Assembly (NCBI GenBank): GCA_036149055.1
Contig: JAYZQJ010000128.1
Coordinates: forward strand, 1-64,000
DNA: 64,000 nt
Direction: 5' to 3'
DNA from: Myxococcota bacterium
GTDB taxonomy: Bacteria > Myxococcota_A > Polyangia > Polyangiales > Sandaracinaceae
Numbering within the stretch: position 1 is the stretch's first letter; each line of letters starts with the position of its first letter. The translations under genes were made by a program, and so were the position numbers. This document shows positions 30,459 to 45,915 of this stretch, one piece after another. The notes beneath the pieces were generated by a model. That model saw nothing but the letters and a program-made list of their open reading frames with translations, made no database searches and was not told where the DNA came from.

Positions 30459-30470
30459 CGTCGCGGCCCT
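30426..30470. repeat. 15-bp tandem repeat x3 (encodes MGAAK MGAAK M)
   Basis: CATCTTCGCGGCCCC x2 plus CATCGTCGCGGCCCT. Confidence 0.85.
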
Positions 30471-31044
30471 AACGACGCGCGCGGGCGAGGAGGTAGGACG
30501 CCAGGACGCCTCCCGCGAAGCCAAAGAGGTGCCCCTCCCAGGAGACGAAGGTCTGGAGCGGGGACATCCCGAGGAGCAAGCTGCCCCAGACGAGGAGCAC
30601 GACGATCGACAGCGCGATCGAGCCGAGCCGCCGCTCGAACCACCCGGTCGAGAGCAGGTAGCCGAAGAGGCCGAAGACCACGCCGCTGGCTCCGATGTGG
30701 TTGGTGTCGGATCGGCCGATCAGCCAAATGCCCAGCCCGCCGATCAGCGCGGAGAGCGCGGCGGTCACGTAGAGATCGCGCTCCTCCTTCAGCACCACCA
30801 TCCCGCCGAAGACGAGGATGCCGACCGCGTTGCCGAGCACGTGCCCGAGACCGCCGTGCAAGAACGGATGCGTGAGCACCCCGATCAGGCCGACGGCCTC
30901 TCGCGGGCGCACTCCGAGCGCGTCGATCGGCGCCACCCAGCTCACGATCTCGAGGGCCAAGATCAGCCCGACGAACCCGAAGAGGACCTTGCCGTAGCGA
31001 CGGAGGTCGCGACCCAGGTCCGCGAAGGTGACCTTCTCTTCCAC
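30469..31044 (-). CDS. Rhomboid intramembrane serine protease
   Basis: PFLHGGLGHVLGN, HIGASGVVFG and SWEGHLFG. Confidence 0.93.
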   Translation of the reverse strand: MEEKVTFADLGRDLRRYGKVLFGFVGLILALEIVSWVAPIDALGVRPREAVGLIGVLTHPFLHGGLGHVLGNAVGILVFGGMVVLKEERDLYVTAALSALIGGLGIWLIGRSDTNHIGASGVVFGLFGYLLSTGWFERRLGSIALSIVVLLVWGSLLLGMSPLQTFVSWEGHLFGFAGGVLASYLLARARR

Positions 31045-31096
31045 GACGGCAGCCTAGCACCGCCCGCGCGGAAGCCGAAACGCGCAAGCCTCGCGG

Positions 31097-31603
31097 TCAG
31101 CTCCCGTGGGCGGCGAGCTCCGCGGGGCAGGTGCCGTCCTCGGGGACCTGGAGCGCGTTCGAGGGGGAGGCGGTGTCGGCGGCGGGAGCGCTCTCGTTCG
31201 TGCGACGCACGTAGAAGGGCGTGCCGGTGCCGATGTCGAGGCCCACGTCGTAGTAGTAGCTCCCGTCGAAGCCAGCCGGGATGCAGACCGAGCCGGACCA
31301 GGTGTCGGCGACCCGCTCGAGGCGGACCCCATCGGCGAGCGGAAGGTCCGAACCGTAGAGGTACGCCTCGACCTCGCCCTCGTCTTGGTCGGCCGCGATC
31401 GCGAAGGTCACGTCGCAGCACGTCAGCTCCTCGATCGGCGCGACGTCGACCGGACCCCCGTCATACGGGACGCGGGGGAACGGCTCCTCGATGCCCGTCG
31501 CCGGGAGCGCGCGAGGAGGGTTGTCCGGCACCATGCCGGGAGGGCTCTCCTCGCAGGCGGCGAGGAGGGTGGCTGCCGTCACACAGGCGATCGTGAGTCT
31601 CAT
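31097..31603 (-). CDS. Small lipoprotein with CBM48/CBM20-like Ig fold
   Basis: Lipobox LLAAC. VTFAI...AYLYGS...LERVADTWSGSVCIPAG...YYY. ATGA-coupled to the upstream gene. Confidence 0.65.
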   Translation of the reverse strand: MRLTIACVTAATLLAACEESPPGMVPDNPPRALPATGIEEPFPRVPYDGGPVDVAPIEELTCCDVTFAIAADQDEGEVEAYLYGSDLPLADGVRLERVADTWSGSVCIPAGFDGSYYYDVGLDIGTGTPFYVRRTNESAPAADTASPSNALQVPEDGTCPAELAAHGS

Positions 31604-33561
31604 CGGTCCGCTCCGTCTCCGCCGTGGCTCGACGGCCAGTGCCCGCCGCGCTGGAGGACGCGGTGCAAGATGTCGTACGCGCTCTGGTCACGCCCGCGCC
31701 GGAACCACTCCGTCTCGACCGGGATCTGAGCGACCAAGGCCGCCCGTGCCTCCGGCGAGCGGTCCGCCGCGCGGCCGAGGAGCCGGATGAGCGCGACCCG
31801 GGTGATGCGGTCGGGCTGGGTCCGTAGATCCCTCACCGCCCGCTCGACGAGCGCGTCGCTCGGCGCCACGCCCGCGTCGAGGTGCGCGCGGTCGAGCACT
31901 CGGTAGAGGCTGCGCAGCACGCGCGGGTGCCGCTCGCGCCCCAGCCACTCCACCACGAGCGGCGTGGTGTCGAGCGGGTCCATGCGGCGGAGCGCCCGGC
32001 TGGTGTACTGCCGGACCTCGGGCTCCGGGCTCTCGGTGAAGCCGACGACCAGGCTCAGCGTCCGCGGGCTCCGCATGTTGCCGATCGCGCCGAAGACGGG
32101 CCTCAGATCGAGCGGCTCCTCGGCGGTGGCCAGCCCGTCCATGATGGCGTTCTCCGCCACCCCGCCGATGGCGTCGTCGCTCGGGTGCTGCCCGGCGATG
32201 GCGCCCACCGCGAGCATCGCCTCCCGGGCGAGGATGCGCTCCGACGGCTCGTCGCTGGTGATCGCCGCCGCCTTCGACGCCATGTACTGCGCGTCGCTCA
32301 CGTCGACGTCGTCTCGGTCGATCAGCGCGAACATCGCTCGCGTCCGCTCGAAGCTCGGCGCCGCCTCGTCGTGCATCACCTCTCGCAGCACCCCGAGGGC
32401 CTCGGGGGTACGGGTGCGGGAGAGCGCCACGTAGGCGCCCGCGGTCGCGTTGGTCGGGAGCTCGCCGTCGCGCATCGACCGAACGAGCCGCGCGGCCGCC
32501 TCGGGGCGCGCCTCGAGGTAGTCCGTGAGCGGCGGCCAGGTGTCCTGGAAGCCGACGTCTCGCTCGACGCGGCCGAGGTAGCTCGCCAGCGTCTGGGGAT
32601 AGGTGTGCTGTCGCACCGCGTCCTGACGGCGACGATCCGCGAGGGTGAGCGGCCGGCCCGCGCGGCGCTCGAAGGTGCGGGGCAGGAGGTTCTCCCAGAC
32701 GTACGCGTCGAGCTCGCGGGCCGCGCCCCGCATCACCGAGCCGCTCGAGGCGAGCGCGCGAGCGCTGACCCGGGTGCGGGTGAAGCCGCCGTCGCCGCGA
32801 AGCTCCAGCGTCGACTCGAGGTCCGCGAAGAAGGGCCCCTGGCCCAGCTCGATCACCGCGTGACTCGCGACCGGCGCGGCGGCGAGCTCGGCCGGCTGCC
32901 AGAAGCGGTCGTATCGCGTCACCCGACGGAGCACCTGTCGCGCCGAGGCGTCGCCGGCGGGCTCGAAGGTGGCCGTGAACGCGCCGAGCGCGTCCATCCG
33001 CTCGGCCGAGACCCGGTCGGTCTCGGGCCAGACGAAGCCGAGCTCCGCCGAGAGCGACTGCTGGATGCGCGCGTCGGCGCGGAGGGTGTCCTCGTGGCGT
33101 CCGAACGCCTCGATCGCGCAGTCCTCTCCGACCCGCAGGACGAAGGGAGCGAGCAGGCGGTGCGCCCCATCGATCGCGCTCGCCTCGAGGCGCGCGATCC
33201 GGGCGAGCAGCACCGCGCCCTCATCCGACGTCGGTCGCAGCGTCTCGAAGTGGAGGCGGAACGCCGCGCGCTGCTCGAGCTCGAAGGACCGTCGCTCCGC
33301 TCCCGGGACATCCGAGCGCTCGGCGCGGGTGACGACCTCGACCTCGTACGCCAGCCGGTCGTCCGCCGAGAACCGGCAGCCCCAGCTTCGGCCCGACGAC
33401 GCGTGCGACGACGGGTCGGCGCTCGGCCGCGGGGCCGCGAAGACGGGCGTCGCGGGCTCGGAGGTCGCTCCGGTCGGCGCGGACGAGTCCCCGGCGGCGA
33501 AGTAGACGATGGTTGCGGCTGCGGCCAGCGCCGCGCCGATCGGGAGGGCGTGTCTCCTCAT
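31600..33561 (-). CDS. Exported HEAT-repeat protein resembling vitellogenin/MTP N-terminal lipid-transfer module
   Basis: N-terminal signal/TM. Beta-rich segment (YEVEV...PFVLRV...ERMDALGAFTATF) followed by a helical superhelix with TPEAL, AMLAVGAIA and GAIGNMRSP. 653 aa, ATGA coupled. Confidence 0.7.
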   Translation of the reverse strand: MRRHALPIGAALAAAATIVYFAAGDSSAPTGATSEPATPVFAAPRPSADPSSHASSGRSWGCRFSADDRLAYEVEVVTRAERSDVPGAERRSFELEQRAAFRLHFETLRPTSDEGAVLLARIARLEASAIDGAHRLLAPFVLRVGEDCAIEAFGRHEDTLRADARIQQSLSAELGFVWPETDRVSAERMDALGAFTATFEPAGDASARQVLRRVTRYDRFWQPAELAAAPVASHAVIELGQGPFFADLESTLELRGDGGFTRTRVSARALASSGSVMRGAARELDAYVWENLLPRTFERRAGRPLTLADRRRQDAVRQHTYPQTLASYLGRVERDVGFQDTWPPLTDYLEARPEAAARLVRSMRDGELPTNATAGAYVALSRTRTPEALGVLREVMHDEAAPSFERTRAMFALIDRDDVDVSDAQYMASKAAAITSDEPSERILAREAMLAVGAIAGQHPSDDAIGGVAENAIMDGLATAEEPLDLRPVFGAIGNMRSPRTLSLVVGFTESPEPEVRQYTSRALRRMDPLDTTPLVVEWLGRERHPRVLRSLYRVLDRAHLDAGVAPSDALVERAVRDLRTQPDRITRVALIRLLGRAADRSPEARAALVAQIPVETEWFRRGRDQSAYDILHRVLQRGGHWPSSHGGDGADR

Positions 33562-36500
33562 CGGAACCTCTGGAAGTAGGGGAAGCTCTGCTCGTAGAGG
33601 CTGCCCTCGGCGATCACGTGCCCCTGGTACTTGATGATCGGCCAGCCGAAAGTGAGCGTGGTGAGGAGGAGCGGGATGCGGACCTCGGCCCGGATCTCGC
33701 CCTCGAGCGCCCGGACCTCCCACGGCACCTCGACGCCGTAGGCGCCCGCGATGCCGGTGGAGTCGTCCGCGAAGGTGAGGTGGTGGATCGTGTTGCTCAG
33801 CGTCGGCGTGAGCTTCGCCGAGATGAAGGTCACCGACGCCGTCACGCAGACGCCGGCTTCGTCGCTCGGCGAGCAGACGGCGAGGCCGACGCCAGCTCCG
33901 GCCGCGAGCTCGACGCCGAGCGACATCCGGAAGAAGTCCGCCTGACGCACCCGGTCGAACTGGCAGACGAAGGGGAGCTCCTCCGTCATCGGGGTCGGCC
34001 TGAGGGCGGGGGCGGCAGAGCCCTCGACCGCGACCATCGCGAGCCCGGTGGGCGTCGTGCCGGTCGGCATCAGCGTCCCGCGCGAGAAGCTGCGCGCCAG
34101 GCCCCCGTCGACGTAGGTCAAGGCGCCCGCGCCAGTACCGGCCGCGAGCTCGCCCCCGTTCGACAGCCACCGCATCGAGGTCTGCAGCTCGGAGCCGCAG
34201 CGGGTGGCGTCGTAGTTGGAAGCGCACTGCGCGTCCGGGTGGTAGGTGGCGCTCTGCCCGCCCACCCAGGCGGCGACGCCCGCCAAGGCCGCGAGCGCCT
34301 CGGCTTCGGCCGCGGACTGCGGCTCGGCGAGACGGCCGCCGAGCTCGGCGCACGCGTCGGAGGCCGCCTGGAACGCGGCCGTCTCCTCCCCCGACGGCAC
34401 CAGGCAGCCCTGCGCGATCGACGCGCCGGCGGGGTAGGCGGTGTCGGGCGCGGCCCCGCCGACCGTCTGGATGCAAGGGAACGCCTCGTCGTCATCTTCG
34501 CTGGGCGCGAACTGGGCGCCCAGCTTGAGCGCCACGCCGACCCCCGCCGAGACGACCGCGACGACCGTGACGGGCAGTGGGCCGATGGTGAGCTTGGTCT
34601 TGACGCCCACCGCGAGCCCGAGGCCCTCGACGCCCGCGTACCGGCCGCGGGACCACTCCCGGATGAGCGGCGCCGGAGGCGTCCGGCGGGAGGCGTTGAG
34701 GGACGCGATGATCGGATCCCATGGGGGCTCGATGGAGACCTCGACCGGCTCCGACGCGTCGACCGCGGGCGGGCGCGCCAGGTCGGCCTCGATGCGGTCC
34801 ATCGTCATCACGCCGGCGACCTCGACCACCTGCCCGGTCTCGGCCGCCATGACGTCGCTGGAGCCGCGTTGGTGCTGGCTGGACGCGTCGACCGCGTAGA
34901 GCGACTGCGCGAAGTCTCCCCCCGTCGCGGCGTCGGCGGAGAAGTCGTTCTCACAGCCCGCGTTGGTGCACGCCTGGGCGACGCCTTGATCCGTGTCGGC
35001 CGAGGCGTTCGTCGCCCGGTCCCCGCGGCCCTCGCCGCCGCCTTCCCAGAGCGGGCCCTGACCGACCACGGGCTCCACGAAGCGGTCGCGGACGATGCGG
35101 AGCGAGGTGCTCAGTCCCCGATACTCCCAGGGCACGCGGATGGGCCCGGTTCGCGCGCTGTCTCGGAGCACGTAGTAGACGAGGTCCACGGGGAGGTCGA
35201 CGTCTTCGTAGGCGTCGGGGAGCTCCATCAGCGTTCGGCGCCCCTCGCGGGAAAGGGAGAAGGTGCTTCGGGCGTTGAAGCTCCTCCCGTCCCAAGGCAT
35301 CTGCGCCACGCCGAGCGGGATCGGGGAGCGATAGGGCTCGCCCTCCAGCGTCGGGATGCGAAGCGAGCCGGCGACCCGGAGCACCGGGTCGGCGGGGCCG
35401 TCCGGCGTCGCCCAGGAGTAGGGGTTGGCTGGGTTGTCGCCGATGACCGAAATGTCCGACTCCACCTCGATGACCACCTCGCGGTTGGGCCGCGTGTTCA
35501 CCGAGAGCAGCGGCTCCACGACGCGCGCCGCCTCCGGGAGAACGATGACGTGGGAGGCGGGGCCGCCGAGCAGATCGATCCGTGAGTCGGAGACCACGCG
35601 CTGGAGGTAGTAGCCGGCGAGGTCGTATCGCTGGGTCCGCGCGTCGTAGAAGAAGGCGGGCGGGTTGATGGCGCACTGGTCGTCGCCCGATTGGTAGTAG
35701 GTGCCCGAGGTCAGCGAAGCCAAGAGCCGCGCGCGGTCGATACGCCCAAGCCGCCCACAGGACAGCGGTATGCGCGCGCTGAGGCGCTCGCCGTCGGCGT
35801 CGGTGGGCGCGATGACGCGCCGACCGATCGAGCAGACGTGGGTGTAGCGAGTGGTCTGCGACGCCTGGTCCCACTCGGGTCTCGCGATCCAGAGGTCGAC
35901 CGGGATCGACTCCTCTGTCGTGTTCCGGACGAGGAGGCCGAACTCGGCCCCGGGCGCGTAGTGGTCTCCTCCGTCGGAAGAATAGTTGATGCTGCGGCCG
36001 TCCTCTCGGAGGACCTCCGGACTGGGGATGATCTCGAACCCGGTGATGCCGAGGGTCCCGCCGGGCATGGGCCGGCGGCCGTCCGAGCCGGTGATGACCT
36101 GCATCGTCTCGTCGGCCACGCAGTTCATCATCTCGTCGCGGCGCGAGGGGCCGTAGCAATGCGCGGGCACGCACGCGCTCCGAGGCGCGCTCGGGGTCAC
36201 GGCGCGCTCCGGCGGGTTGCAGGTCACCTGCCAGGTGTCGATGCCGTCGGTGTCGTCGAGGGGCGCCGCGGTGTCGTAGACGATCTGGTATCGTCGGGGG
36301 GCGCTCGTCTCGGGATCGATGTCGCCCAGGCCGCAGTTCCAGCGCACCGTGCGGGCGCCCGGGTTGTCGCAGGCGACGGTGAAGTCGCAGGTCCCGCGGC
36401 TCCCCGCGCAGGCACGGCGCGCGGCGGCCGTCGACGCCTCGGCGGTCTCGGTGCCCTCGTCGTCGTCGCAGGTCACCGCGTCGATGTCGATCGCGACGGG

Positions 36501-36740
36501 GATGGGCAGGGGCCCGTCGAAGGTCGCGTCCCCGTCGTCGACGTCGAGCCGATCGGGGTTCCTCAGCTGCTCGTCGATGAGCTCGGCGGGGGGGTGGGTC
36601 CGGTAGTTCCACCCGATGAAGCCCTCGGGGCACTCGAGGGTCGGGTCGAGCCCGCTCTCGTCCGCGGTCACGTCGTCGCCGGCGCAGCCACTGACCGCGA
36701 GGCCCGCCAGCAGCGTCAGGCGCATCATCGTTCTGCTCAT
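33558..36740 (-). CDS. Large (1060 aa) lipoprotein with SUEL-like and C-type-lectin-like domains and a beta-sheet-rich C-terminus
   Basis: Lipobox AVSGC. AASDACAELGGRLAEPQSAAE...WVGG...W...LPFVCQ (C-type lectin pattern). Long G/A/V strands (IGPLPVTV, LEGEIRAEV). Confidence 0.75.
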   Translation of the reverse strand: MSRTMMRLTLLAGLAVSGCAGDDVTADESGLDPTLECPEGFIGWNYRTHPPAELIDEQLRNPDRLDVDDGDATFDGPLPIPVAIDIDAVTCDDDEGTETAEASTAAARRACAGSRGTCDFTVACDNPGARTVRWNCGLGDIDPETSAPRRYQIVYDTAAPLDDTDGIDTWQVTCNPPERAVTPSAPRSACVPAHCYGPSRRDEMMNCVADETMQVITGSDGRRPMPGGTLGITGFEIIPSPEVLREDGRSINYSSDGGDHYAPGAEFGLLVRNTTEESIPVDLWIARPEWDQASQTTRYTHVCSIGRRVIAPTDADGERLSARIPLSCGRLGRIDRARLLASLTSGTYYQSGDDQCAINPPAFFYDARTQRYDLAGYYLQRVVSDSRIDLLGGPASHVIVLPEAARVVEPLLSVNTRPNREVVIEVESDISVIGDNPANPYSWATPDGPADPVLRVAGSLRIPTLEGEPYRSPIPLGVAQMPWDGRSFNARSTFSLSREGRRTLMELPDAYEDVDLPVDLVYYVLRDSARTGPIRVPWEYRGLSTSLRIVRDRFVEPVVGQGPLWEGGGEGRGDRATNASADTDQGVAQACTNAGCENDFSADAATGGDFAQSLYAVDASSQHQRGSSDVMAAETGQVVEVAGVMTMDRIEADLARPPAVDASEPVEVSIEPPWDPIIASLNASRRTPPAPLIREWSRGRYAGVEGLGLAVGVKTKLTIGPLPVTVVAVVSAGVGVALKLGAQFAPSEDDDEAFPCIQTVGGAAPDTAYPAGASIAQGCLVPSGEETAAFQAASDACAELGGRLAEPQSAAEAEALAALAGVAAWVGGQSATYHPDAQCASNYDATRCGSELQTSMRWLSNGGELAAGTGAGALTYVDGGLARSFSRGTLMPTGTTPTGLAMVAVEGSAAPALRPTPMTEELPFVCQFDRVRQADFFRMSLGVELAAGAGVGLAVCSPSDEAGVCVTASVTFISAKLTPTLSNTIHHLTFADDSTGIAGAYGVEVPWEVRALEGEIRAEVRIPLLLTTLTFGWPIIKYQGHVIAEGSLYEQSFPYFQRFR

Positions 36741-36775
36741 CTTCACGTCGCCTCTCATCGCCGGTTCGTCCACGC

Positions 36776-39700
36776 TCAGGGCACGCATCGGATCACCACG
36801 CAGCCGTCGCCACCGTACGTCGTGCCGACGCCGCCGGGCTCGCTCGCCGCCGCCGATCTCCGCGCGGTGCAGAGGGCGTAGTCCGGGGACCCCGTGTTGA
36901 CGGCGTTGCCGGTCGACGAGCTCATCGGGGTGAGCCCTCCGCTGAGCACCCCGAAGGCGCCGCCGCTCGCGTCGGTGAAGGTGAAGGCGGAGCCGCCGAC
37001 GCCGCCGGGCTCGCCCGCGCCGCCGCCGCCGCCGCCGTCTCCCGACGGCGCATCCTCGCCGCTCGGGCCGGTGGCTCCGCCGCTGGTGGCGTCGCCGCCG
37101 CTGCCGGCCGGCGCCGCGAACGCGTCGCTGGAGCCGCCGCCTCCGCCGGGGACCGAGAACTGCAGCGTCGCGCTGCCGGTCTGGCGGACGGAGGTGAGCC
37201 CGCCGCCGCTGCCCCCGCCGGCGCTGAAGCTTCCGTCGCCGTCGCCGTCGCCCCCGCTGGCGGGGGTGCCGTAGAGCGAGCCGATCGACGCGGTGCCGAA
37301 GACCGCCGACACCCCGGCCATCTCGCCGCCCTGGCCGACCCACACCGTGAACACGTCGCCGGGCGTGACCGGGAGCGTGCCCTCCACGTAGCCGCCCGCG
37401 CCCCCGTAGGAACGGTCGGGGGGGAAGCCGGTCTCCTGACCGCCCGCGCCGCCGCCGGCGCCCCACGCGGCCACGAAGACCTGGGTGCACATCGCGGGCA
37501 CGGTGAAGGTGCCGGACGGCGCGACCCCGTCGGCGGTCGGCACGTCGAAGACGGCCGAGCAGCCGCTCATGCAGCTCGGCGGGGGTCCGCTGTCCACGCC
37601 GCTGTCCACGCCACTGTCGGCCACCATGCCGGCGTCACGCCCCCCGTCGACGCCGGCGTCCATGCCCACGCCAGCGTCCCCGGTCGGGCGGCTCGTGACC
37701 GAGCAGCGCAGCGCGACGCTCTCGGGGCGCGAGGGCATGCGGAAGCCGGTGTCGGTCACCAGCGCGCCGCCAACATCGAAGTTGCAGGTGGTGTCCACCA
37801 GCGAGCCCCCGTAGGTGACGGGATCGGGCTGCGTCGGGATCGTGAGCCGGTAGCTCACCGCGCTCCCGAGCGTGAACAGCCCGTTCTGGTTGAAGCTCAC
37901 CGTGTCGGCGGTCCCGTCGAGGTCACGGGTGATTCGTAGGACCGCGCCGGGCGGGAGCCCCTGAACGTTCGCCCGGACCGCGGCCGTCGCGTAGGAGCAG
38001 TCGATGGTCGCCACGTCGAGGCGGTCGAAGTGGACCGTTCCGGAGAGGTTGGGGGAGCCGTCACCCGTCCACCCGAAGGCGGCGCGCGTGAAGACGCAGC
38101 TGAGCCCGGGGTCGCTGTTGTCGAGCCGCAGGTCGTAGGCGTAGCCGCGCGGCAGCACGTGCGTGAAGTCCGCGCCGGTCGACGGAGACAGGGCCTGGCG
38201 GGTGGAGACGCCGTCGACTGTGACGTCGATGCCCAGCGTCGAGCCCGGCGAGAGGCCGCGAACCAAGAACCTCGGCGAATATGTGGCTCGGCACGTCGCT
38301 TCGACGCAGATCCCGTCCTCACAGTCCGAGCCCTCGCGACACGAGTCATGCACTATGCAGCGTCCACAGAGGGTGCCTCCGCAGTCGATGTCCGACTCGG
38401 TCCCGTTCAGAATGCGGTCCTCGCAAGTATCGTTGCGGCACGTCCCCCGCGAGCAGAATCCGTTGCAGTCCGCGTTCTCCTCGCATGACAGGCCCACGTC
38501 GCAGCCGCCGCAGACGGCGCCGCCGCAGTCCACGTCGGTCTCGCCGGTGTCCTGGACGCCGTTGGCGCAGAGCTGCGAGAGCTCGACGCCGGTCGTCTCG
38601 CCGGTCTCCGGGTCGACGGAGACCCGGCTCGTGTCCTCGCCGTCGCTGGTGTAGCTGGTCTCGCTGGTGGTCGCGGTGCCGTCGGGCTCGCGCCGGGTCA
38701 CGGTGACCTGCGTGGTCTCTCCTTCGTCGACGCCGGTGCTGTCGACCTCGACCTTGCCCTCGGGGGTGAGGCGCACCGAGACGCTGTCCGCGCCGTCGTC
38801 GACCACCACCGTGACCTCGACCTCGCCGTCTTCGGTCTGGTAGGTGACCCGCGCCCGGACCGGGGTCCCCGATCGCGAGGCGACGGTCAGCTCGCCGCCT
38901 TCGGTGACCCGGACCGTGTCCTGCTCGGAGGCGTCTCCGTCGATGCCGGTGATCTCCACCGAGAAGTGGCCGGGGCGGTTCACGACGACGCTGCCGCCGC
39001 CCTCCTCGTCCATGCCGATCCCGCCCGAGTAGGTGAGCTCGACGTCGCTGCCGCCGCTGGCGGGGATCGTCATGCGCATCGGGCCGCGCGAGCCGCAGCG
39101 GCAGCTGGCGAACACCGGCACGAGCGCCGCGCCGTTCTCCTCGATGACCGCGCCGCCCTGGACGCCGACCCGCGCGTCGCCGACCGACGCGAGCGCCGAC
39201 AGGCCGCCCTCGGTCGAGACGGAGATCCCGTCGCGCTCGAAGGGCGCGGGCAGCACCCCGCGGCGGGCCGCGATCGGCGCGAAGTAGAGCGCGTTGCCGT
39301 TCTCTCGCGTGCCCTCGTAGAGCACGGAGCTGCCGTCGGGCAGCGGCATGTCGTAGGTCCAGGTGCCGGCGCCCTCGTCGATGCGGATCACCTGCTCGAG
39401 CTGCGGGCGGTTGCTGTCGTAGACGCGGAGGAAGTAGAGGTCGGCGCGCTCGCCGCGGTAGTAGCCGATGGGCACCAGGGCGTGGGCGAAGTCGAACCCG
39501 GCCTCGGTGCGTCGCGCGATCGCCAACCGGTAGCGCTCGCCGCCCTCGGCGAAGGCCTCCTCGACGAGGAACTGCATCACGTCCTCGGCGATGAAGCGGC
39601 GGTTGGTCGTGGGGGGCAGCGCGTACTGCGACGCCGACCAGTAGGCGAGCTCGGCCTGCAGCGCGAGGTTGCCGGGCAGCACCAGCTCCGCCGCGGTCTC

Positions 39701-40066
39701 GGCGCCGAAGTCGGACGGGGAGAGGTCCCCGGTCGCGAACAACATCGAGAGGATCGCGAAGCCCTCGCTGTAGCCGGCCCGCAGCGCGATGTTCGACTCC
39801 GCGATCCAGGCGGCGGCCTCGGGCGTCGGCGTGCAGGGGAGCGCGCCCCCGACGCAGGTGACGTCGGCGCCGAACATGCGCGCCGCCAGATCGGCGCTCA
39901 TCGGCATCCCGCGGTCTTCGAGCGCGAAGTTCTCGAAGGTGAAGGCGTCGCGCCGGAAGTCGTACTCCCAGGCGAGATCGGGGGGATGAGAGTCCCCCGA
40001 GCAGCCGGCCCCGGCGAGGGCGATGAGAAGCAGTAGAGACGAGGCGGTGAAGCGGGGTGAGGTCAC
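36776..40066 (-). CDS. Large (1096 aa) lipoprotein: papain-like N-domain, CxNGxxDxxETDVDCGG repeats, Ig-like repeats, Gly-rich C-terminal domain
   Basis: Lipobox AGAGC. DAFTFENF, GYSEGFA, AHALVP and YDSN motifs. Two ETDVDCGG/ESDIDCGG repeats. FTVP...AWGAGGG...GGAGGY...VWVGQGG...GGDGCVVI Gly-rich domain. Confidence 0.8.
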   Translation of the reverse strand: MTSPRFTASSLLLLIALAGAGCSGDSHPPDLAWEYDFRRDAFTFENFALEDRGMPMSADLAARMFGADVTCVGGALPCTPTPEAAAWIAESNIALRAGYSEGFAILSMLFATGDLSPSDFGAETAAELVLPGNLALQAELAYWSASQYALPPTTNRRFIAEDVMQFLVEEAFAEGGERYRLAIARRTEAGFDFAHALVPIGYYRGERADLYFLRVYDSNRPQLEQVIRIDEGAGTWTYDMPLPDGSSVLYEGTRENGNALYFAPIAARRGVLPAPFERDGISVSTEGGLSALASVGDARVGVQGGAVIEENGAALVPVFASCRCGSRGPMRMTIPASGGSDVELTYSGGIGMDEEGGGSVVVNRPGHFSVEITGIDGDASEQDTVRVTEGGELTVASRSGTPVRARVTYQTEDGEVEVTVVVDDGADSVSVRLTPEGKVEVDSTGVDEGETTQVTVTRREPDGTATTSETSYTSDGEDTSRVSVDPETGETTGVELSQLCANGVQDTGETDVDCGGAVCGGCDVGLSCEENADCNGFCSRGTCRNDTCEDRILNGTESDIDCGGTLCGRCIVHDSCREGSDCEDGICVEATCRATYSPRFLVRGLSPGSTLGIDVTVDGVSTRQALSPSTGADFTHVLPRGYAYDLRLDNSDPGLSCVFTRAAFGWTGDGSPNLSGTVHFDRLDVATIDCSYATAAVRANVQGLPPGAVLRITRDLDGTADTVSFNQNGLFTLGSAVSYRLTIPTQPDPVTYGGSLVDTTCNFDVGGALVTDTGFRMPSRPESVALRCSVTSRPTGDAGVGMDAGVDGGRDAGMVADSGVDSGVDSGPPPSCMSGCSAVFDVPTADGVAPSGTFTVPAMCTQVFVAAWGAGGGAGGQETGFPPDRSYGGAGGYVEGTLPVTPGDVFTVWVGQGGEMAGVSAVFGTASIGSLYGTPASGGDGDGDGSFSAGGGSGGGLTSVRQTGSATLQFSVPGGGGGSSDAFAAPAGSGGDATSGGATGPSGEDAPSGDGGGGGGAGEPGGVGGSAFTFTDASGGAFGVLSGGLTPMSSSTGNAVNTGSPDYALCTARRSAAASEPGGVGTTYGGDGCVVIRCVP

Positions 40067-40148
40067 GTCGAGGCGCCGACGCGAACGGGAAATCGGCTCG
40101 GCGCCGCGCTCGCGTACCGCAAGGTACGGCAGTCCGAGCGGAATCCGT

Positions 40149-40178
40149 ACCCTATTTGTAGAAAATTCTACGACTCAA
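40149..40178 (-). promoter_or_regulatory. Putative promoter with spacer palindrome upstream of the 31-40 kb operon
   Basis: Minus strand TTGAGT-N18-TAGGGT, with GTAGAA-AA-TTCTAC (40158-40171) in the spacer. The patch is unusually AT-rich. Confidence 0.5.
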
Positions 40179-40276
40179 TACGGTGGTACCCTGCAGAGGA
40201 CAGTCATTCACGCAGCTCCCCCTCCACGCGGGGGTCCGCCGAGCCGCACAAACGCTGGTAATCCTGAGGTTTTCCG

Positions 40277-40648
40277 CTACTGGACGCGGCCGAGCAGGGT
40301 CTCGGCCTCCTCGGCGTCGAGACCGAGCGCGCCGGCCACCTCGAGCACGCGGTCGCGCTCGATCTGGTGCACGCCGTGGCTCCGCGCCTCCTGCACCGCG
40401 CAGACGAGCGCGTCGCGCGTCGACGCGAGGTCGGCGTCCGCGGCCGCGTCCCGGACCCACTCGAGCGGGTCCTCCATCGCCATCTCGGTGAGCACCTCGA
40501 CGATGTGCCGGTCGATCGTGCCCGGCGGCAGCGGGGCGCGCTTGACGATGAGCTCCCGGAGCACCCGCCGCTCGTCGGCGTCGAGCTCTCGGTCCGCGAA
40601 CGCGACGTAGATGCACGCGCCGATGAGCAACCGCAGCGAGGGATCCAT
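40277..40648 (-). CDS. TerB-family (tellurite resistance-like) protein
   Basis: YVAFADRELDADERRVL...HGVHQIERDRVLEVAGALGL. TAGGCT-N6-ATG upstream. Confidence 0.75.
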   Translation of the reverse strand: MDPSLRLLIGACIYVAFADRELDADERRVLRELIVKRAPLPPGTIDRHIVEVLTEMAMEDPLEWVRDAAADADLASTRDALVCAVQEARSHGVHQIERDRVLEVAGALGLDAEEAETLLGRVQ

Positions 40649-40680
40649 GAGCACAGCCTAGATCCGCTCGGCGCCGAGCG

Positions 40681-41634
40681 TCACTCTCCCCGGGCGAGGG
40701 CGGCGACCTCGTCCCGGGAGAGGGCGCGGTCGAAGACGTGGATCTCGTCGAGGACCCCGTCGAGCGGGAAGACGAGGCGCGAGCCGTCGTTCTCGTCGGC
40801 GCCGATCAGCACGTCCTGGTTGCTGGGGATGACGGTCTCGCCCTCGGCGCGCGCGACCTCCACTCCGTCGACGTACACGAGCTTGTCGCCCCCGGCGTAG
40901 ACCAGCGCGACGTGCGTCCAGCGCTCGAGGGTCAGCGGGTCGGTGGCGTACACGGAGCGGATCTCCACGTCGTTCGTGGTGATGAAGCCGGGCCGCGGCG
41001 CGCCGGACGAGGCGTTGAGGAAGAGCTGCCACACGTTGGCGGAGCCCGAGCCGGCGGGGAGCCCGATGGCCGACTGGCTCCTCACGGTCTCGGGCGCGGG
41101 GTCGTGGAGGTAGAGCCAGAGCGCGACGCTGAAGTCGACGCCGCTGCCCGGCGGGACGTCGGGCACGAAGACCGGGTCGTACGACACACGCAGCCGGCGC
41201 GACTCGGCGGTGAAGTCGCAGCCGTTCCCCACCCGGCCGGCGACCACGTCGGGGCAGCCCGCGGCGTCGCAGCGCCCGTCCCGCGCGGCCCCGCTGACGT
41301 CGCGCACGAAGGCGCCGTCGAGCGCCTCGCAGGCGTAGCTCGCGACCGGACCGGCGGGGCCGGCGTCCGGCGCGCCTCCGTCCCGACCAGCGTCCCGACC
41401 GCCGTCTATCAGGCCTCCGTCGGCGGGGCCTCCGTCTCGACCGGCGTCGTCGGGAGGCCGGCCGGCGTCGGGCGCGTCTCCGGGCAGGCACACGCCGCTC
41501 GGGCCGCAGTGATGGCCGGGCGCGCAGGGGCACGGGCGGTCTTCGAGCACGTCGGCCGGCACGACGCAGCCCACCGCGAGCAGGGCCGAGAGCGTCAGCC
41601 GAGCCGCCTGGAGGCCGCGAGACCAGGTCGTCAC
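40681..41634 (-). CDS. LamG/ConA-like domain lipoprotein
   Basis: Lipobox LAVGC. FSVALW, WTHVALVY, YVDGVE, IGA and LDEIHVFDRALS motifs. Confidence 0.88.
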   Translation of the reverse strand: MTTWSRGLQAARLTLSALLAVGCVVPADVLEDRPCPCAPGHHCGPSGVCLPGDAPDAGRPPDDAGRDGGPADGGLIDGGRDAGRDGGAPDAGPAGPVASYACEALDGAFVRDVSGAARDGRCDAAGCPDVVAGRVGNGCDFTAESRRLRVSYDPVFVPDVPPGSGVDFSVALWLYLHDPAPETVRSQSAIGLPAGSGSANVWQLFLNASSGAPRPGFITTNDVEIRSVYATDPLTLERWTHVALVYAGGDKLVYVDGVEVARAEGETVIPSNQDVLIGADENDGSRLVFPLDGVLDEIHVFDRALSRDEVAALARGE

Positions 41635-42965: not shown

Positions 42966-43712
42966 ATGCGACGGATCGGCATGGGCGCGGCGTGGGTCCT
43001 CACGCTGCTGGTGGGGGCGCTCCTTCTCTCGGGCTGGCTGGGCTGGCTCGACATGGAGCGGGCGCTGGAGCTGGTGATGGGCGCGGTGTCGCTGGGCGGG
43101 CTGTGGCTCGTGGTCTGGCTGCCGTGGGATCTCTACTTCGGCGCGCGCGGGCTCGCGGCGGAGCAGGCCGACGGAACCGCGCGGGGCATCGAGGTCAGCG
43201 AGGCCGACCGCGCGGAGGCGAGGCGGCTCGCGCCCCGGCTGCTCGCCCTGTGCCTCTCGCTCCACGTCGGCGCGGCCGGCGGCCTCGCGCTCACCGCCTG
43301 GCTCACCGAGGGCGCGCTCGGCTACTGGTTCGCGGCCGCCTACCTCGTGGCCATCGGCCTGCGACCGCTCGGCGCCTTCTACCGCCACGTGAGCGCGCGC
43401 CTCGACGCGCTGCACGCCCGCACCCGTCACCCGCGCGAGGACGTGGTCGCGCTCCGCCATCGGGTGGAGACCCTCGAGCACGAGCTCTCCGCGCTGCGAG
43501 AGCGGGAGCTGCCGGCGCTTCGCGACCGGGACGACGCGCTCGAGGCGCAGCAGAGCGCCGATCGACACGAGGCGCGCTCCCGCCTCACCGCGGTGGACGC
43601 GAAGATGGACGAGGTGCTGCTCGAGCTCGAGCGCTCGGTGGCCCGCCTCACCCGGGACCGCGAGCTCCTGCAGGGGATCCGCGCCTTCGTGCGGGCGGTG
43701 AAAGAGGCGTGA
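42966..43712 (+). CDS. Membrane protein with C-terminal coiled coil
   Basis: Four hydrophobic segments (WLPWDLYF), then a heptad-rich tail. Confidence 0.75.
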   Translation: MRRIGMGAAWVLTLLVGALLLSGWLGWLDMERALELVMGAVSLGGLWLVVWLPWDLYFGARGLAAEQADGTARGIEVSEADRAEARRLAPRLLALCLSLHVGAAGGLALTAWLTEGALGYWFAAAYLVAIGLRPLGAFYRHVSARLDALHARTRHPREDVVALRHRVETLEHELSALRERELPALRDRDDALEAQQSADRHEARSRLTAVDAKMDEVLLELERSVARLTRDRELLQGIRAFVRAVKEA

Positions 43713-43747
43713 GGAATGCTTCGGGGCGCCCGTGGCATTCTCTGTCC

Positions 43748-44368
43748 ATGAGCCGGCGCGTCCTGGATCTCGTGCTCGCGGGCGGAGCCACCGGGTTCTT
43801 CCTGCCGCTCCAGCTCGGCGCGGCCGCGCTGATCCGCCTGGAGGACGGCGGCCCCGCGATCTTCCGGCAATCGCGCCTCGGCAAAGACCGCGTGCCCTTC
43901 GTGGTGCCGAAGCTGCGCACCATGCGGGACGGGGAGGTCACCCGGGTCGGGCGCTGGCTGCGGGCCACCGGGATCGACGAGACGCCGCAGTTCCTCTGCG
44001 TGCTGCGCGGGGACATGGCGATCGTCGGGCCGCGGCCGCTCACCGCCGCCGACGTGGCGCGCCTCGGCTGGACCGGGCCCGAGCACGACGCGCGCTTCGC
44101 GGTGCCGCCCGGGATCACCGGGCTCGCGCAGGTCTTCGGGGGCGTGAGCGCCCGGCACTCGCGCGCGCTCGACGCCCTCTACGCCCGGCGCGCCTCGGTG
44201 GGGCTGGATCTCTGGCTCATCGGCGTCTCGTTCGCGATGAACCTCGCCGGCAAGCGGCGGGTGCGCGGCTGGCTCAGGCGGGCCCCACGACCGCTCGGCG
44301 CCCGCTCGCGACCGCTCGGTCGATCGGCGGCAACGTTCCGGCCCGACCGGCTGTCCGAGTCGCGATGA
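43748..44368 (+). CDS. Minimal bacterial sugar transferase (PglC/WbaP-C-terminal-like phosphoglycosyl transferase)
   Basis: RRVLDL, GPAIFRQSRLG, KLRTM, TRVGRWLRATGIDETPQ, GDMAIVGPRP and PGITGLAQV. Confidence 0.88.
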   Translation: MSRRVLDLVLAGGATGFFLPLQLGAAALIRLEDGGPAIFRQSRLGKDRVPFVVPKLRTMRDGEVTRVGRWLRATGIDETPQFLCVLRGDMAIVGPRPLTAADVARLGWTGPEHDARFAVPPGITGLAQVFGGVSARHSRALDALYARRASVGLDLWLIGVSFAMNLAGKRRVRGWLRRAPRPLGARSRPLGRSAATFRPDRLSESR

Positions 44369-45915
44369 CCATCGCCCCCGACGCCCCCTTCCGCGAGCAC
44401 GTGAAGCCGCGCCCGCTCCCCCGGCCCTTCCGCGAGCCGCCTCCCCTGCCCCGCGCGGCCGGCCGGCCGAGGCCGAAGACCGCGCTGCTGATCAACCCGT
44501 TCTACCCGAAGGATCCACACGCCAGCTTCGGCAAGCACGTGCTGACGCCCACCCTCGCGCTCACCAGCGTGGCCGGCGCGACGCCGCCCGACTGGGAGGT
44601 GGCCTACTGGGACGAGAACCTGCTGAGCGGCGCCGCGCCGGCGGACCCGCCGCCCGCGGTGGTGGGGATCACCGTGCACCTCACCTTCGCCGACCGCGCG
44701 TTCGCGCTCGCTCGGGCCTACCGGGCGATGGGGTCGAAGGTCGTGCTCGGCGGGCTGCACGTGATCTCCTGCCCGGAGGAGTGCGCGCCGCACGCCGACG
44801 CGCTCGCGCTCGGCGACGGAGTCCAGCTCTGGGGCCGGATCCTGGGCGACGCGGCCGCCGGCCGGCTCGCGCCTCGCTACGAGGTCGACTTTCGCAGCGA
44901 CTACGCCGCCGATCCCGCGCCCCGCCGCGACCTGCTGAAGCGGCGCGCGTTCCTCACGACCACGAGCCTCAACGCGACCCGCGGCTGCCACAACCGCTGC
45001 GGCTTCTGCTACCTCGCCACCGACGGGCTGCGCATGCCCTACCGGATGCGCGAGCCGGCGCAGATCGCGCGCGAGATCGAGGAGGACGGCCAGCCCTACG
45101 TCGTCTTCACCGACAACAACCTCGGCTCCTCCAAGCGCTACCTGCACCAGCTCTGCGAGGCGCTGCGCCCCCTGGAGATCATCTGGAGCGCGGCGGTGAC
45201 CATCGACGTGACCGACGACCCGTCGCTCGTCCGCGCGATGGCGCTCAGCGGCTGCACCGGCGTCTTCATCGGCTTCGAGAGCCTCTCGGGCGAGAACCTC
45301 GACGACGCCCGCAAGAAGACGCCGCGGCCGGAGGACTACGCGCGCCGGGTGCGCCTGCTCCACGACCACGGCATCCAGGTGAACGGCAGCTTCGTGGTCG
45401 GCTTCGATCACGATCGCGCCGACTGCTTCGCCGAGCTCGCGAGCTGGGTCGAGGACAACCGCCTCGAGAACGCGACCTATCACATCCTCACGCCCTACCC
45501 GCGCACGCCGCTCTTCCGGCAGCTCGAGGCCGAAGGCCGCATCCTGCACCGGGATTGGCGACGCTACGACACCGCGCACGTCGTCTTCCGTCCGAAGCAC
45601 CTGCGCCCGGACGAGCTGCAGCGCGGCTACGAGTGGCTCTACCAACGCACCTTCGGCGCGGCCTCGATCTGGCGACGCCGGCCGGACGACCCGCGCGCGG
45701 TGCCGCCGTACCTGGCGATGGCCTACCTCTACAAGCGCTCGAACCCCCTCTGGCGCCTGCTCATCGAGCGGGACCTCACCCAGTGGGCGTGGCGGCCGCT
45801 CGTCGAGTGGACGCGGCTCCGGCACGTGCGGAGGCGGGCCGAGCTGGCGGCGAGGCCGCTCGAGGGCGCGACCACGAAGGTGCGCCTCCCCACGGTGGTG
45901 CACGCCAGCGTGTGA
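44365..45915 (+). CDS. B12-binding-domain radical SAM protein
   Basis: VVGIT and KVVLGGLH cobalamin-binding segment. TRGCHNRCGFC, FIGFES and LTPYPRTPLF. ATGA coupled. Confidence 0.9.
   Translation: MTIAPDAPFREHVKPRPLPRPFREPPPLPRAAGRPRPKTALLINPFYPKDPHASFGKHVLTPTLALTSVAGATPPDWEVAYWDENLLSGAAPADPPPAVVGITVHLTFADRAFALARAYRAMGSKVVLGGLHVISCPEECAPHADALALGDGVQLWGRILGDAAAGRLAPRYEVDFRSDYAADPAPRRDLLKRRAFLTTTSLNATRGCHNRCGFCYLATDGLRMPYRMREPAQIAREIEEDGQPYVVFTDNNLGSSKRYLHQLCEALRPLEIIWSAAVTIDVTDDPSLVRAMALSGCTGVFIGFESLSGENLDDARKKTPRPEDYARRVRLLHDHGIQVNGSFVVGFDHDRADCFAELASWVEDNRLENATYHILTPYPRTPLFRQLEAEGRILHRDWRRYDTAHVVFRPKHLRPDELQRGYEWLYQRTFGAASIWRRRPDDPRAVPPYLAMAYLYKRSNPLWRLLIERDLTQWAWRPLVEWTRLRHVRRRAELAARPLEGATTKVRLPTVVHASV

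Follow-up and report, generated by a model that had tools for sequence, protein, structure and literature searches.

Large lipid transfer proteins (LLTPs) such as MTP, vitellogenin and apoB, which carry fat, are treated as animal proteins in the available portions of the papers that describe them (PMC1783640, PMC6717300, PMC12214520), and the word 'bacteria' is absent from the available main text of two of these (PMC1783640, PMC6717300). Among the papers listed by literature searches, which covered sources other than subscription journals and bioRxiv supplements, none described a bacterial LLTP. As set out in the available portion of PMC6717300, the lipid pocket of MTP is formed by a six-stranded C-sheet and an A-sheet with strands twice as long; the helical domain ends at the loop of residues 594-610, before the C-sheet, and the helices clamp both sheets, half of the A-sheet packing on the N-terminal barrel. 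The locus described here lies in a stretch of 64,000 nucleotides from a Myxococcota bacterium of the family Sandaracinaceae (assembly GCA_036149055.1, contig JAYZQJ010000128.1, positions 1 to 64,000 of the forward strand), referred to as the window, and comprises four genes labelled A, B, C and D, of which A lies furthest upstream and D furthest downstream; all features of the locus given below with coordinates lie on the (-) strand. An earlier note, made from the letters of the window, had proposed that the parts of an LLTP are split here between C (barrel and helices) and B (sheets). This proposal is partly supported, by a structure search with a homologue, by near-obligate pairing of the two genes and by two fusions, and the reading that B and C together form an MTP-like module for lipid binding, split over two chains, tethered to the envelope and fitted with variable heads, appears to us about as probable as all its alternatives combined.

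The sum of B and C would yield the same parts as the large subunit of MTP (6I7S, 8EOJ), namely an N-terminal beta domain (presumed in C), a helical superhelix, a short C-sheet and a long A-sheet. Unlike MTP, these parts are encoded on two genes, mostly with the sheets first and the barrel and helices second, are exported with lipid or hydrophobic anchors, and have foreign domains on either side of the sheet of B and within it; no PDI-like neighbour was seen at the B/C loci. Where LLTPs are one polypeptide, the window and nearly all other loci have separate open reading frames (ORFs). With vitellogenin or lipovitellin (1LSH, 9ENR, 9ENS) and apoB (9BD1), the Vitellogenin_N helices are shared by C and a sheet match by the B core, and accessory binding domains are likewise attached; the lipovitellin module, too, works as separate chains after cleavage, according to the available portion of PMC12214520. 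Unlike vitellogenin and apoB, B has neither a large, funnel-sized A-sheet nor a vWD domain, and the division between helices and C-sheet is made at the level of genes.

The genes standing beside C vary widely and have in common a beta-rich core of ~275 residues, amphipathic and all-beta, in which one face is hydrophobic on most of the long strands. Minimal B proteins consist of a signal peptide and the core only, at ~265 residues (loci L107, L110, L111, L119, L101, L102, L104, L109, L117 and L121). The minimal homologue of L107 was modelled with AlphaFold2 from 81 sequences, which gave an all-beta structure (per-residue confidence score pLDDT 84.6) of six shorter strands followed by much longer ones. 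Searched against the PDB with Foldseek, the model returned MTP first (6i7s; E 1.6e-6, TM-score 0.56 by query), then lipovitellin (3.1e-4) and bee vitellogenin (4.9e-3); MTP and lipovitellin were the only matches at E<=0.001, the first protein outside the LLTPs following at 1.2e-2. A VIA search over 48,161 chains placed lipovitellin at the top (Z 8.7, root-mean-square deviation (rmsd) 2.6, 82 residues aligned) and MTP second (Z 8.4, rmsd 4.6, 213 aligned). Residues 13-259 of the model superpose on MTP 612-880 (6i7s; Z 7.9, rmsd 4.9, 240 aligned), and since this range lies past the border of the helical domain, the B core corresponds to the part of MTP that is absent from C. The LLTP lipid-binding domain's C-sheet and A-sheet are in this way recognisable at family level, in the model of the minimal homologue, and the size and strand lengths of the core match the compact sandwich of MTP as given in the available portion of PMC6717300. 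Because the core has the size of this two-sheet sandwich and not of the lipovitellin funnel, an MTP-like small pocket is likelier than the lipoprotein-particle-like carrier that the earlier note had envisaged.

Gene C (31600..33561; 653 amino acids) encodes an N-terminal anchor or signal, a beta-rich N-half and a helical superhelix. Its family counts 1008 representatives at E<=0.001; among the 150 matches listed nearly all are 600-710 amino acids long or fragments, and the named relatives belong to records of Sandaracinus, Polyangiales, Myxococcales and Myxococcaceae. The helical domain of Vitellogenin_N or HEAT type occupies residues ~310-640 (31642..32634). Pfam assigns HEAT_2 to the window's C at E 1.3e-9 and detects Vitellogenin_N at E<=0.001 in 47 of 75 family members picked from loci gathered in this analysis, the best at 1.8e-19, so that the helical superhelix of LLTPs is found at family level; the window's C is itself linked by profile to the Vitellogenin_N-bearing members over 548 columns (E 5e-52). 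When Vitellogenin_N was searched genome-wide, the C gene was the best match in four of five genomes and scored above the cut-off in three. The presumed N-sheet, or beta-barrel, at residues ~60-285 (32707..33384) falls outside the Pfam matches. An Atlas model of C (residues 1-638) aligns with an MTP cluster over 382 residues at TM-scores of 0.44/0.33, and Vitellogenin_N occurs in 12-75% of the members of its nearest Atlas clusters, which come from Myxococcota, Planctomycetota and Pseudomonadota. A hydrophobic N-terminal segment is present in 89 of 106 C proteins; in the window's C a pattern scan found it without a lipobox, with a maximum 19-residue Kyte-Doolittle (KD) hydropathy of 1.88.

The pairing of B with C is near-obligate. 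A B-type gene accompanies 104 of the 111 C loci (85 upstream, 13 downstream, six on the opposite strand), as detected by a B-end profile iterated on those same loci; of the seven C loci with no B match, three lie at contig ends, one has broken frames and three are real. Since the profile had been grown on the loci it was counted on, two controls were run: within the whole genome it matches one ORF, gene B itself, and a core profile applied to 401 genomes of the class was positive in 103. In the reverse direction, the 40 places examined, of about 50 listed by this search as having a B core and no recorded C match, had a separate C gene close by in 34 and a one-ORF fusion in two (36 of 40 in total), the remainder being three at a contig edge and one with no C. 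The neighbourhood survey that the earlier note had suggested thus finds the homologues co-located from either side. At the level of genomes, B and C occur together in 81 against 23 expected, where the 91 genomes with C are a floor, the tallies include the unpublished genome G663, and related genomes are not independent. Sequence identity between two B proteins correlates with that between their C partners (Pearson 0.89, Spearman 0.39, 76 pairs), a covariation that is expected for linked genes anyway. The pair, which recurs across predatory myxobacteria, has a patchy distribution: no C match was found in three complete genomes from the same family, and the L107 pair had none in plasmids.

Two lipoprotein-like ORFs, L184:5356-7170 (-) and L186:5247-7304 (-), fuse a B core to C-type helices. 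Both hold the sheets and the helical part in reversed order and lack the N-sheet half; Vitellogenin_N is matched at E 3.8e-5 in one and 0.011 in the other. No full single-chain fusion of C and B was present in the 111 C loci, and a weak search for longer B-core proteins returned 10 close relatives with Lectin_C and no full fusion. At L103:6104-8745 (-) two tandem short B genes stand ahead of one C gene, which suggests exchangeable partners. What is conserved is the B+C pair, with A and D as accessories confined to a single subfamily; that B and C physically assemble is probable. A general tie of the pair to sterol synthesis was considered and is not supported: of 112 genomes with B or C, 48 have no oxidosqualene-cyclase-like match (E<=1e-100) and 103 genomes with such a match have no B or C match, in a tally where 10 of 167 matches pass the cut-off, genomes are incomplete and kin are not independent. 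From this distribution sterol synthesis is not required. An oxidosqualene-cyclase-like gene is present in the genome of the window itself (G000, contig C191:20509-22380; E 7.6e-215, under the family cut-off), and this organism may, judging by that sequence, make sterols.

In the window, gene B (33558..36740) encodes a lipoprotein of 1060 amino acids that combines a putative back half of LLTP fold with lectin-like cargo. A domain resembling SUEL, the rhamnose-binding lectin, spans residues ~80-175 (36216..36503); a profile of 14 homologues matched 5h4s at E 1.2e-4 in two stretches and the latrophilin-like 8suf at E 0.018, so that profile evidence places a Cys-braced SUEL domain in B and supports the label it had been given before. 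It is followed by a middle region with no assignment (residues ~230-560; 35061..36053) that is conserved in 16 loci; residues 232-578 are mostly unalignable at 90% in a close strain represented in the RNA runs X1/X4. The sheets begin with a presumed C-sheet equivalent, reduced or degenerate (residues ~588-670; 34731..34979), and continue with the first long hairpin of the A-sheet equivalent (residues 704-743; 34512..34631; pLDDT >90), whose faces have KD values of 2.2-3.2 and -0.9. A C-type lectin fold is inserted in a sheet loop (residues 755-930; 33951..34478), beyond which the remaining A-sheet equivalent continues in long amphipathic strands (residues 931-1060; 33561..33950; pLDDT >90). 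These pLDDT values come from a model of B 540-1060. When an alignment of the window's B subfamily (23 sequences) was compared with independent cores by hhalign, residues 942-1054 matched with a probability of 95% (E 2.7e-8) and residues 711-744, which lie across the insertion from them, at E 2.2e-4, three control alignments giving <1% each; the presumed C-sheet found no hhalign match to other cores. The A-sheet being homologous and well modelled and the C-sheet weak, the window's B has support for a docking sheet and none for a pocket, which may be reduced in this lineage.

The folds of C-type lectins (tetranectin, collectins) and of SUEL lectins (5H4S, latrophilin) thus both occur in B. The former, which the earlier note had also recognised, is confirmed by a profile match to tetranectin at E 6e-13 and by a VIA match of Z 13.6 (2vuz; rmsd 3.0, 119 aligned). 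Unlike C-type lectins, the domain sits in the loop of a sheet and, in residues 756-932, has no EPN, QPD or WND motif; EPN or QPD together with WND are the calcium- and sugar-site motifs of this fold. Of the glycan-binding heads proposed earlier, the lectin folds stand and the canonical binding motifs of the C-type domain do not. Across the family, 48 B proteins out of 66 representatives were scanned and 14 had Pfam matches; the cargo domains, which include Lectin_C, ricin-type, VOMI, LamG, FG-GAP, EGF, PKD, Dictyostelium repeats and others, sit before, inside or after the core. B proteins of 1800-2200 amino acids at L064:6018-11417 and L062:630-7217 carry extra domains after the core, either VOMI or EGF with FGE-sulfatase and lectin. 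In the close strain, 68 of 4340 letters differ over 30670-35009, and the N-terminus of B and parts of A are far more divergent than this, a pattern indicating that cargo changes faster than core.

In the module proposed here, B and C would be the two halves of an MTP-like LLTP, each exported as a chain of its own. The N-sheet and the helical clamp would come from C, anchored by its hydrophobic N-terminal segment, and the sheets from B, a lipoprotein in the window; once the two assemble outside the cytoplasm, C would close the hydrophobic faces of B around a narrow pocket with room for a single lipid or a few. The interchangeable heads of B, SUEL-like and C-type-lectin-like in the window, could direct the module to a surface, and an exported peptidase or peptidase-like partner (in the window A, with Ser for Cys) and the small lipoprotein D may act alongside. 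Such a module would most plausibly serve the uptake or hand-over of lipid at contacted prey, at matrix or at the cell's own membranes. Lipid binding, at family level, seems to us slightly more probable than its absence, and less so in the window's lineage. The module would also require C, held at the inner membrane, to meet the surface-type lectins of B, which poses a compartment problem.

Several observations weigh against this reading. The match to MTP comes from the model of a homologue and not from the window's B, at an identity of 7-12%, and its Z exceeds that of membrane barrels by only ~1 and is close to the VIA noise level of 8. The earlier note had named Foldseek as a check: MTP comes first with the L107 model, whereas fold searches with the model of B 540-1060 displayed C-type lectin rows only, MTP not being among them; as the lectin domain filled the displayed rows, its missing from them is no exclusion. 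The Pfam families MTP_lip_bd (PF19444) and Vit_open_b-sht (PF09172) gave no match to B in five genomes, one of 81 B cores matched Vit_open_b-sht at the chance level of E 0.24, the B-core profile found no LLTP when searched by sequence against the PDB, and an Atlas by-feature search from B gave no LLTP link. The presumed C-sheet of the window's B has pLDDT mostly <65 and is more polar, with 14 strongly hydrophobic columns of 93 against 21, the beta moment of this half being 0.76 in the window's lineage and 1.03 in others. On the side of C, the window's own protein alone scores Vitellogenin_N at E 0.18, the family's matches to this profile are confined to the helical part (positions 325-582), and the Atlas TM-scores to the MTP (0.44) and vitellogenin (0.38) clusters both stay <0.5. 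Three loci in two genomes (L052, L053, L058) have C with no detected B, and one (L155) has B with no detected C, with flanking DNA present in all of them; at L155 the B gene is followed by a fusion of a periplasmic-binding protein with a C13 peptidase. The neighbours seen to recur at the loci included no lipid-metabolism or transporter gene.

The most serious competitor of a lipid-binding module, unlikely as we judge it, is that C is a membrane-held scaffold or chaperone covering the sheet of B, the LLTP fold serving as a docking clamp and the pair exporting and displaying adhesins and peptidases with no lipid cargo. The lipase-specific foldase (Lif), a helical protein held at the membrane, is encoded next to the exported lipase that is its dedicated client, and C could by analogy play a similar part for B; unlike Lif, C bears an additional beta-rich half as well as similarity to Vitellogenin_N, and no Lif match appeared in any search. 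The cargo of B is highly variable, adhesin-like and the fastest to diverge between strains, most C proteins have the hydrophobic N-terminal segment counted above, and exported peptidases recur as neighbours (HExxH type in 25, C13 in eight and C11 in four of 159 loci, many of them close kin, and the A-type protein in 13), all of which a display system would account for, and the weak C-sheet of the window's lineage favours a scaffold locally. It accounts less well for the minimal B proteins, which at ~265 residues are free of cargo, retain a hydrophobic face on both sheets and are still paired with C, so that the display of cargo cannot be the sole purpose of the family.

Two further explanations fit worse than either the lipid-binding module or the scaffold. 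The core might insert in a membrane, either as a barrel like that of autotransporters or to form a beta-pore, with C as its pilot or guard; its long amphipathic strands, ~275 residues in all and usually C-terminal to variable passengers, would suit this, and barrels and pore formers occupy the lower rows of the fold searches. These membrane barrels match one half of the L107 model, or the whole with an rmsd of 12-21, against 240 residues at 4.9 for MTP, and the partner C is independently Vitellogenin_N-like. The beta-domain of autotransporters is a barrel at the extreme C-terminus whose last residue is aromatic, whereas 31 of 106 B proteins have >40 residues past the core, only 14 of the 70 that end with the core terminate in F or Y, and the window's B ends in Arg; membrane insertion is accordingly improbable. 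The resemblance could, finally, be a convergent one between LLTPs and a generic HEAT-repeat protein standing beside a generic beta-rich lipoprotein of other ancestry. HEAT_2 outscores Vitellogenin_N in the C family (73 against 47 of the 75 members), the C profile, searched by sequence against the PDB, retrieves alphaRep and HEAT proteins and not MTP, and identity to LLTPs is as low as stated above. Yet the two halves, tested separately, point to complementary parts of the same eukaryotic family, and the Vitellogenin_N matches, at profile positions 325-582, cover more than single HEAT repeats; we hold convergence to be the least probable of these explanations, by our estimate very improbable.

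Should the split LLTP-like module be borne out, it would be a widespread bacterial LLTP, cut exactly between helical clamp and sheets; the origin of apoB, MTP and vitellogenin would gain a testable prokaryotic side, and myxobacterial biology a kind of envelope system for lipid handling or display. With ~600 + 265 residues and a locus free of PDI, the minimal pairs are of a size suited to expression and assay and are potential simple models of the LLTP pocket. It is a more tentative proposal, on balance doubtful, that B and C work as a two-chain bacterial LLTP moving envelope lipid, and that the pair preserves ancestral modules later fused into MTP, vitellogenin and apoB.

The two other genes of the window's locus belong to one subfamily. 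A was found in 13 and D in 18 of the scanned loci, and neither in scanned loci outside this subfamily; as they are so confined, the four-protein complex that the earlier note had put forward is not supported. The order A-B-C-D recurs in nine other loci (L001, L005, L036-L038, L041, L143, L145, L146; L143 is a near-identical strain and L005 is broken), and two further loci have the four-gene order with A truncated by the contig end. Gene A (36776..40066, GTG start) encodes a lipoprotein of 1096 amino acids with, from N- to C-terminus, a protease-like domain, a beta-rich middle, Cys-rich repeats and a Gly-rich domain. The N-domain (residues 25-280; 39227..39994) is called papain-like from its Cys/His/Asp pattern, which is presumably that of papain-like enzymes, Ser100 standing at the Cys position beside His195 and Asp217. 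Among 12 aligned homologues, ten have Ser and two Cys, and A itself lacks the catalytic Cys; the previous designation as a pseudo-protease is supported by this motif and finds no Pfam or PDB match. On contig C97 of the same genome (G000, ~43400-45000, (+)), remote from any B/C pair, lies a paralogue of the N-domain that keeps the Cys/His/Asp pattern intact and has a C-terminal tail resembling a membrane anchor. The Cys-rich repeats (residues 500-594; 38285..38569) recur many times in the genome, with tblastn matches at other sites of the window's contig and on nine further contigs. The Gly-rich domain (residues 835-1096; 36779..37564) is conserved in 13 loci and matches Gly_rich_2 (PF21722) through its homologue L151 at E 1.8e-4, which agrees with its earlier label and lies under the cut-off. 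Gene D (31097..31603) encodes a lipoprotein of 168 amino acids with a small Cys-braced beta domain, for which the former description as CBM-like finds a single weak match, to a pullulanase N-domain at E 0.078. In other lineages the neighbours of B/C include an exported HExxH metallopeptidase family that scores under the Pfam cut-offs and mostly stands directly downstream of C (L046:7703-9148 and 24 other loci); together with the C13, C11 and A-type neighbours counted above, it makes an exported peptidase a recurring third party. A 10-locus neighbour cluster labelled 'clostripain' was discarded, being partly joined by repeats, and the domain-level count is four. NCBIfam searches gave nothing useful.

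The layout of the locus is as first described: ORF coordinates bear out four genes on the same strand, joined by ATGA overlaps at B/C and C/D and separated by a 35-bp gap at A/B, and a pattern scan, with no signal-peptide predictor, found lipobox-like motifs at Cys22 of A, Cys19 of B and Cys17 of D in addition to the hydrophobic N-terminus of C. The AT-rich upstream region was likewise verified as an intergenic leader and likely promoter region (40067..40276; 61.9% GC), whose core at 40130-40240 has 57.7% GC against 73.7% in the window, within the lowest 0.1% of 110-bp windows; scans of the locus for a sigma-70-like promoter and a terminator found none. Patches of lower GC content at third codon positions (GC3), remarked on earlier, are present at 38.3-38.45 kb (0.77) and near 35.7-36.0 kb (0.87-0.88), are mild against 0.91-0.94 per gene, and coincide with the sites of greatest divergence in the close strain. 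In two RNA runs of one sample, a single contig of this strain spans 30670 (or 30794) to 40106 and thereby all four genes, at a depth of 27-33 with most flanking bins <8, its ends at 40106-40107 falling inside the leader. This fits a single transcript that starts in the leader and extends into the rhomboid gene described below, the contig alone being no proof of one, and the library may contain DNA; the seawater runs X5 and X6 covered the region patchily, at a depth not above the flanks.

Located 52 bp downstream of D is a gene for a rhomboid-family intramembrane protease (30469-31044 (-); Pfam E 1.5e-22), into which the RNA-run contig extends. The protease is not among the recurring neighbours at other loci; it could cut a membrane anchor, for example that of gene C. 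Upstream, at 40277-41634 (-), the same strand has two genes, one lipoprotein-like with a LamG domain and the other TerB-like, which, given their low depth in the RNA runs, probably form a separate unit.

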